Part shown: positions 5,186 through 5,251 of the stretch, one piece after another
Layout of the letters: every line of letters starts with the position of its first letter
Numbering within the stretch: the stretch's first letter is position 1
The notes under the pieces: model-generated
What the model was told of the DNA's origin: nothing
What the model saw: the letters and a program-made list of their open reading frames with translations, nothing else
Database searches by the model: none
NCBI GenBank assembly: GCA_048885865.1
Contig: JBHLLF010000014.1
Coordinates: forward strand, 1-64,000
DNA from: Candidatus Hermodarchaeota archaeon
Lineage (GTDB): Archaea > Asgardarchaeota > Thorarchaeia > Thorarchaeales > Thorarchaeaceae
Length of the DNA stretch: 64,000 bases
Direction: 5' to 3'
Made by a program: the position numbers and the translations under genes

Positions 5186-5251
5186 TTCGTCATGGCTCGG
5201 GAGATATTCGGACCTGACTATCTGCCGTACAGGCAAGAGAAACAGATGTAG
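5186..5251 (+). repeat. ACAD 3'-end copy, full length
   Basis: ttcgtcatggctcgggagatattcggacctgactatctgccgtacaggcaagagaaacagatgtag; hairpin GAGAGAGG-gtctt-CCTCTCTC at 5267-5287. Confidence 0.97.

Follow-up and report, generated by a model that had tools for sequence, protein, structure and literature searches.

The repeat in this array comprises the final 66 nt of a gene for acyl-CoA dehydrogenase (ACAD) together with the terminator that follows it, and copies lie between cargo genes both in the window (the whole 64,000 nt stretch analysed here) and in many relatives. These copies are probably discarded 3′ ends of ACAD, the left border of each being the scar of a cut by a homing endonuclease, and the array in the window would then be a form that lacks the nuclease. 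Positions within the repeat are counted from the first base of the Ile codon at its start (+1).

The features of the window are listed in Table 1. All tail copies are on the forward strand, with one to several unrelated genes between neighbours, and the cargo includes genes for beta-propeller, flavodoxin, SCP2, ArsR, luciferase-like, Fe-ADH, esterase, LVIVD and GNAT proteins, among others. The five full copies each differ from the live tail by 4 to 5 synonymous and 0 to 2 non-synonymous codons (5 and 1, respectively, for the copy at 5186-5251), and a variant of the terminator hairpin is found behind each of them. A second sample of the same study yielded contigs that run through the copies at about 11184, 12171 and 17028, and the array is therefore not an assembly artefact. 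In the mosaic copy at 17628-17693, the upstream flank and left part match one copy from genome G015, and the right part and cargo match another.

Three cargo ORFs (9020-9760, 11210-12088 and 17060-17617) end in or beside partial tails, with a stop codon made of repeat letters, which suggests deletions at microhomologies. Between 31532 and 31846, left-half and right-end tail copies flank an open frame of ~80 codons that has no start codon.

Table 1. Features of the window, in order of position
Feature	Position	Strand	Basis or remark
Displaced ACAD promoter and first codons	263..359	+	5′ side array
Displaced ACAD promoter and first codons	1040..1131	+	5′ side array
ACAD (acyl-CoA dehydrogenase), intact, 413 aa	2133..3374	+	Host gene of array; ORF; PF02771, PF02770, PF00441
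Predicted 4-nt overhang of putative endonuclease cut	3305..3308	+	-4..-1, just before Ile codon; bimodal copy edges
Live ACAD 3′ end, last 21 codons and stop	3309..3374	+	Repeat template
Terminator-like hairpin and pyrimidine tract	3390..3421	+	3′ of live ACAD; read from sequence
SBBP beta-propeller repeat protein	3487..5142	-	First-slot cargo (slot holds endonuclease gene in relatives); PF06739; first-slot comparison
Displaced ACAD tail, copy 1	5186..5251	+	Then terminator-like hairpin to about 5300
12-6-12 imperfect palindrome	5198..5227	+	Codons for R-E-I-F-G-P-D-Y-L-P
Partial tail copy (+26..+62)	9754..9790	+	Contains stop codon of ORF 9020-9760
Full tail copy	10492..10557	+	
Short partial tail copy, from about +20	about 11187..11208	+	Adjoins stop codon of ORF 11210-12088
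Full tail copy	12171..12236	+	Different terminator type
Full tail copy	15021..15086	+	Second one with 10/12 palindrome
Right-half tail copy (+31..+66)	16270..16305	+	With terminator
Left-half tail copy (+1..+41)	17028..17068	+	Overlaps stop codon of GNAT gene 17060-17617
Full tail copy	17628..17693	+	Mosaic
Worn left-half tail copy	24191..24216	+	Ends at +26
Worn left-half tail copy	31532..31569	+	
Tail copy, right end	31827..31846	+	
Worn left-half tail copy	about 33211..33246	+	Homology from 33208

The 5′ side of ACAD carries a further array. Copies of the ACAD promoter and gene start at 263-359, 1040-1131 and 2053-2149 separate the upstream cargo, each with its left edge at the promoter start and a variable right edge. 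Three more promoter copies are found at 393, 815 and 3426 in contig C110 of this genome (L286), which may continue the 5′ array. Besides the ACAD 5′ end, similar arrays are present in this genome at rps19, a hydrogenase subunit gene, iscU, uvrB, the 16S rRNA end and tRNAs. That of the rps19 3′ end (about 84 nt) is seen in L187 (contig C13; 32, 1872, 5756 and 9812) and in L279 (contig C84 of G014, a genome with nine matches), and has its own narrow left border, at Glu/Phe codons, in several genomes. The other arrays are L188 (C19; 7537, 8700, 11287), L191 (C27; 16429, 17412, 18771), L192 (C42; 16385, 19066, 21710), L189/L190 (C21; 27818, 34462, 47612, 48428) and L193 (C106). The anchors recognised among L188 to L193 are a hydrogenase subunit tail, an iscU-like tail of variable length, the promoter and gene start of uvrB and the DNA that follows the 16S rRNA 3′ end. 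Several tRNAs (C5, C9, C23, C29 and C51) have copies of tRNA 3′ ends, starting at the T-loop or immediately 5′ of it, 0.6-11 kb downstream, and no integrase was found in the genome. By eye, the borders at rps19 and uvrB look like a tRNA T-loop and that of ACAD does not, which speaks against the idea that all borders mimic it.

Left border and crossovers

The tail was matched in 61 of the 86 genomes of the family, and the loci fetched contain 235 non-native copies. The family belongs to Thorarchaeota, the name that NCBI gives for a protein of its member G024. An abrupt left border had been described for the window and is confirmed. The full copies at 5186, 10492, 12171, 15021 and 17628 start at the Ile codon or within a few bases of it, with unrelated DNA upstream, and the left-half or worn copies at 17028, 24191, 31532 and about 33208 share this border. 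At the Ile codon, identity to the native gene climbs from background level to >85%, and 187 of 223 copies begin by +9. The border had been called fixed; it is real and narrow, but it is a window of about -5 to +9 and not one base. The upstream flanks of 140 copies fall into 118 clusters. Because the border is narrow and the flanks are this diverse, many independent junctions evidently arose at one place in ACAD, the partner DNA being arbitrary.

The left edges are bimodal, near +1 and near -4/-5. Four or more upstream matches are kept in 30 of 109 copies (2.8 expected), with a dip at three, and the tetramer at -4 to -1 is GAAG in 18 of these 30 copies and in 3 of 21 nuclease-linked alleles. 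The bimodal edges would fit a 4-nt 3′ overhang at -4 to -1 that was either kept or trimmed.

Cassette units have a median length of 1.3 kb and consist of one to three genes between co-oriented repeats, with strand counts for the cargo of 165 minus and 110 plus. The only oppositely oriented tail copy among the scanned loci is one in L163 (genome G076, contig C366). Four units of 135-155 bp are empty, with tail, terminator and a short spacer but no gene (L070 3791-3938, L078 1170-1318, L094 14137-14272 and L099 6292-6447).

Cassettes of the window are carried in other orders in other samples, for example with the GNAT cassette followed by the LVIVD cassette. Among pairs of copies, 27 share the upstream flank and 36 the downstream flank, but none shares both. 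Switch points were mapped in pairs that are at least 85% identical, 13 of them sharing the upstream flank (the final pairs of the list were left out) and 11 the downstream flank. Of the former, 11 part at or before +23, including three that part by +7; of the latter, seven join at +33 or later (four of these beyond the stop codon) and none before +15. The starts of partial copies in all genomes peak at +13 to +24 and their ends at +43 to +48, with no cluster at the 6-bp spacer of the palindrome, which the preliminary description had put forward as a candidate recombination site. The allele switch points are likewise spread along the repeat, and that proposal is abandoned. Partial copies that begin or end at or near the palindrome core are indeed present in the window, at 9754 (+26), 16270 (+31) and 24216 (an end, +26), but do not cluster there across genomes.

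A single fixed crossover, whether in the spacer (+25 to +30) or at the left border, was rejected as the source of the reshuffling, as it cannot yield both switch patterns. Repeated crossovers over 66-110 nt of homology can explain both. The crossovers are dispersed, and homologous recombination is the probable pathway.

LAGLIDADG endonuclease genes behind ACAD

In 21 distinct loci of relatives, an intact ACAD gene is accompanied by a two-motif LAGLIDADG gene or remnant, no more than about 300 nt from its Ile codon. In a profile search of array loci, the nuclease gene either adjoins the live gene or is one slot further out (L370 and L369), and it is convergent with ACAD. The product has a match to PF14528, and its predicted structure (pLDDT 82.6) has best matches to PI-SceI, an archaeal VMA intein endonuclease, I-DmoI and I-SceI; the non-cutting LAGLIDADG protein WhiA is also among the fold matches. 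Both aspartates at the catalytic positions are kept in all 44 complete sequences. The N-terminus contains helix-turn-helix-like repeats, and a Pfam scan of the nuclease found no intein or zinc-finger family.

The nuclease family is present in 43 of the 86 genomes. In a quick tree, a clade with 99% support comprises 21 proteins, of which 17 are anchored at ACAD, one is at a worn tail and three have no known anchor, and the L071 protein falls outside this clade on a long branch. Other clades adjoin genes read by eye as Sec61beta, carboxylase subunits and etfA. Nuclease clades located immediately 5′ of Sec61beta-like and carboxylase-subunit-like gene starts (L342, L346, L348, L349, L352-L357, L360 and L362) suggest elements by which promoters and the beginnings of genes are replaced. 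A gene for a HerA/VirB4-like ATPase of 800-900 aa immediately precedes many of the nuclease genes linked to ACAD (L075 13562-16177, L076, L077, L088, L365, L366, L371 and L372), and a distant homologue of it, cut by the contig end, is found in this genome (contig C94, 4155-6659). The first slot of most array-bearing loci holds cargo and not a nuclease. No member of the nuclease family was found in this genome (87% complete), where the one match to PF14528 is weak and below the cut-off.

The end of ACAD has been replaced in alleles linked to the nuclease. The peptide KIVM is present at the border in 5 of 21 nuclease-linked alleles and in 20 of 28 others (Fisher p=0.0014), and the common junction 9-mer in 0 of 21 and 8 of 28, respectively (p=0.007), both p values overstating the significance as the rows are related. 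Further downstream, too, tails linked to the nuclease are more distant from the consensus of the copies. Between close ACAD pairs, divergence is 0.06-0.08 upstream and 0.29-0.33 at -15 to +15. L078 and the nuclease-bearing L074 are identical over 1018 nt and then differ at 50 positions from -82 to +65, as would be expected of a co-conversion tract around a cut. Nuclease elements terminate in a tail copy at the same border, with a junction common to five of them, and two empty units of 148 bp share 16 of their last 24 nt with a nuclease element. The junction part shared by these empty units suggests loss of the nuclease gene.

The left border is thus most likely the cut site of a homing endonuclease, with cleavage predicted from the sequences. 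It had been suggested earlier that, failing the palindrome, an enzyme encoded elsewhere might act in a crossover at the left border. A defined event does appear to have taken place there, but the likeliest enzyme is a LAGLIDADG homing endonuclease and not a recombinase.

The following sequence of events is proposed. A free-standing two-motif LAGLIDADG endonuclease would cut sensitive ACAD alleles at the junction of the Lys and Ile codons, 66 nt before the gene end. The left broken end would be repaired on a donor locus, presumably following movement of DNA between cells, and would copy from it a recoded, resistant tail, the terminator and the DNA beyond. The old tail could be rejoined downstream via the tail copy of the donor, as in the WHO elements of yeasts (see below), or alternatively via 0-6 nt of microhomology, which would create a new junction at the same place and could join new cargo at the break. 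Homing of the WHO type inherits the donor junction and alone leaves the 118 different flanks unexplained, and the microhomology step is invoked for these. After repeated rounds, and once the nuclease gene had been lost and other genes taken up, a row of tail-cargo units would remain; homologous recombination between tails of 66-110 nt, at any point along them, would reorder these units both inside one genome and from genome to genome. This genome would now have the array without the nuclease.

Host recombination by itself might also build such a row, using ACAD homology on one side and illegitimate joining on the other. The LAGLIDADG protein would then be a passenger or a DNA-binding protein, as the presence of WhiA among the fold matches allows, and the border would be a fragile site or the limit to which homology reaches. 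The dispersed crossovers suit this account, as do the similar arrays at several unrelated genes, with no nuclease found beside the rps19 or uvrB arrays fetched. It is nevertheless unlikely. A passenger would be expected in distal slots like other cargo, whereas the nuclease was seen nowhere but in the slot beside the live gene or the one after it; its clades are tied to anchor genes and its catalytic aspartates are invariant; and nothing other than a cut accounts for a border of ~14 nt in more than 100 independent junctions.

Site-specific recombinases and the 12-6-12 palindrome

The preliminary description suggested that a site-specific recombinase encoded elsewhere may act on the repeat, but no tyrosine or serine recombinase was found in this genome (87% complete) or in 1.1 Mb of array DNA. 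This genome has no match to PF00589, PF00239, PF07508 or PF02371, to Cas1 or to reverse transcriptase, and PF00589 is also unmatched in the array-bearing genome G024 (97% complete). PF00589 is present in 29 of the 86 genomes of the family, and 29 of the 46 array-bearing genomes (those with two or more tail matches) are without it. In most of the Thorarchaeota genomes searched, several of them >95% complete, not a single tyrosine recombinase match was obtained, and XerA may be absent from the family.

Tandem integration of viruses or islands would involve an integrase crossover at the left border, an attP that brings a replacement tail, and later decay of the elements. This would explain the fixed border, the synonymous differences between tails and the travelling terminators, and the tRNA 3′-end copies that start at the T-loop in this genome would agree with it, as would a weak tail match in G023 (29 nt, 12.8 bits) about 1.2 kb from an integrase. 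However, no conserved attP-like arm was found left of the copies, where there is only a short A/G bias at -5 to -1, and a profile built from 31 integrases of relatives, with a positive control included, found no integrase in the 1.1 Mb of array loci. Viral contigs contain no exact match to two tail patterns, and the integrase loci of relatives contain no clear copies of ACAD, rps19 or promoter. Where cassettes have cargo in common, they do not have the tail in common from the border on, and both the nuclease in the first slot and the tract from -82 would be left unexplained. Integration of this kind is accordingly quite improbable.

The letters of the palindrome are as first reported, with arms at 5198-5209 and 5216-5227 that match at 10 of 12 positions around a spacer at 5210-5215, and the copy at 15021 is identical. 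A role as recombination site is not borne out. The arms were scored in 142 ungapped tail copies from the window and relatives, the null being random synonymous coding of the same ten residues. Only 4 of the 142 copies reach 10 of 12, and the mean of 7.06 compares with 6.69 for native genes and 6.58 for the synonymous null, in which 10 or more matches have a probability of about 1% per draw. Other copies in this genome score 9, 8 and 9 of 12, and the live gene scores 8. The paired fraction is the one expected from independent columns at all arm positions, so that there is no covariation. Because the copies match the synonymous null and positions pair at the rate expected of independence, the 12-6-12 symmetry is, on the sequences available, a by-product of the codons that plays no part in the array. 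A function as binding site was ruled out by the codon null, the absent covariation and the loss of the symmetry in other genera; the copies of G024 score 4 and 7 of 12, and its array persists nonetheless. No hairpin across the junction was detected (-16.2 kcal/mol for real junctions and -16.3 kcal/mol with swapped flanks), and no conserved pairing of the attC type, a single-strand hairpin with R and L boxes, was found. Dispersed switch points and a codon effect, the two observations that had been named in advance as arguing against the site, are what the data contain.

An Xer/dif-like or attC-like site at the palindrome, with exchange by a tyrosine recombinase in the 6-bp spacer, can therefore hardly be right: the 10/12 arms of two copies and the two or three partial copies of the window with an edge within +25 to +31 speak for it, but arm matching is near synonymous chance, switch points and partial ends lie away from the spacer, junctions fold no better than swapped ones, and PF00589 was not found in this genome (87% complete), in G024 (97% complete) or in most array-bearing genomes.

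Comparison with known systems

The resemblance to Xer/dif is confined to the arm-spacer-arm look of two copies, and the array differs in that the symmetry is not conserved, there is no fixed crossover and no XerA-like gene was found in most genomes of the family. Integrons and CALINs are alike in outcome, with co-oriented repeats, small gene units and cassettes in other orders. However, the ACAD array has no IntI and no hairpin site, its repeat is coding sequence, its cargo is on either strand and its crossovers are dispersed.

Islands such as e14 and phage 21 at icd of E. coli, and SCC at rlmH, integrate into a protein-coding gene at its 3′ end and bring a substitute for it. They share with the ACAD array displaced gene tails with silent differences and accumulation in tandem, but the array has neither an integrase nor a conserved attP arm.

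In a wider reading, Thorarchaeota would harbour site-specific homing elements of one LAGLIDADG family, in which every clade has its own conserved gene as anchor, at either the 3′ or the 5′ end, and some members are accompanied by a HerA/VirB4-like ATPase. Cutting and replacing gene ends would be the main means by which accessory genes are captured, stored and reshuffled, integron-like but without an integrase, with the border as the cut site and the overhang at -4 to -1. The case for and against this wider reading is about evenly balanced. The presence of the gene-end-replacing layout in dozens of Asgard genomes of one lineage, and at several host genes, would extend it to prokaryotes and tie it to gene acquisition, with cassettes crossing genera of the family without an integrase. 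Horizontal gene gain in these close relatives of eukaryotes would then have a possible route. The borders of the repeats would also reveal the targets of a set of nucleases with long recognition sites. No description of such a system in Asgard archaea was found in the literature searched, the coverage of which was incomplete.

The closest parallels are homing elements that replace gene ends, a third and much rarer category that has been described in yeasts (10.64898/2026.08.13.744650). Mobile ORFs (mORFs) of fungal mitochondria, known at atp6 of Allomyces macrogynus and at atp6, atp9, cox2 and nad3 of Glomus (PMC3630166), are similar in that a free-standing endonuclease gene brings a foreign C-terminal end for the host gene and the native end is displaced downstream. 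They are, however, single insertions in organelle genomes, whereas the ACAD arrays are long rows of cargo reshuffled across species.

The nuclease of the WHO elements, which occur at FBA1 in the yeasts Torulaspora and Lachancea, cuts its host gene; a resistant allele replaces the 3′ end, and old ends are pushed downstream, starting from about the same base (Coughlan et al. 2020, PMC7282813). Even the amino-acid sequence of the WHO target diversifies (Osborne et al. 2026, 10.64898/2026.08.13.744650). As in WHO, the LAGLIDADG gene is 3′ of an uninterrupted host gene, an arrangement found in the 21 related loci and absent from the window. The unit likewise consists of a replacement 3′ end and the nuclease, with old 3′ ends downstream that have the same approximate start, and the 3′ part of the host gene is far more divergent than the 5′ part, with amino-acid changes at the target. 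The differences are an archaeal host, ACAD as target and a tail of 66 nt (about 400 nt in WHO), and a nuclease with helix-turn-helix-like N-terminal repeats and often a HerA/VirB4-like ATPase partner in place of an intein or zinc-finger domain. The array also holds mostly ordinary cargo rather than stacked nucleases, has more than 100 junction flanks and has nuclease relatives at gene 5′ ends too; cleavage here is predicted from sequence. The ACAD system has the architecture of WHO and mORF elements and would work like them, but it does not belong to the WHO family in the strict sense, which is defined by an intein-like domain, a zinc finger, FBA1 and relatedness to HO.
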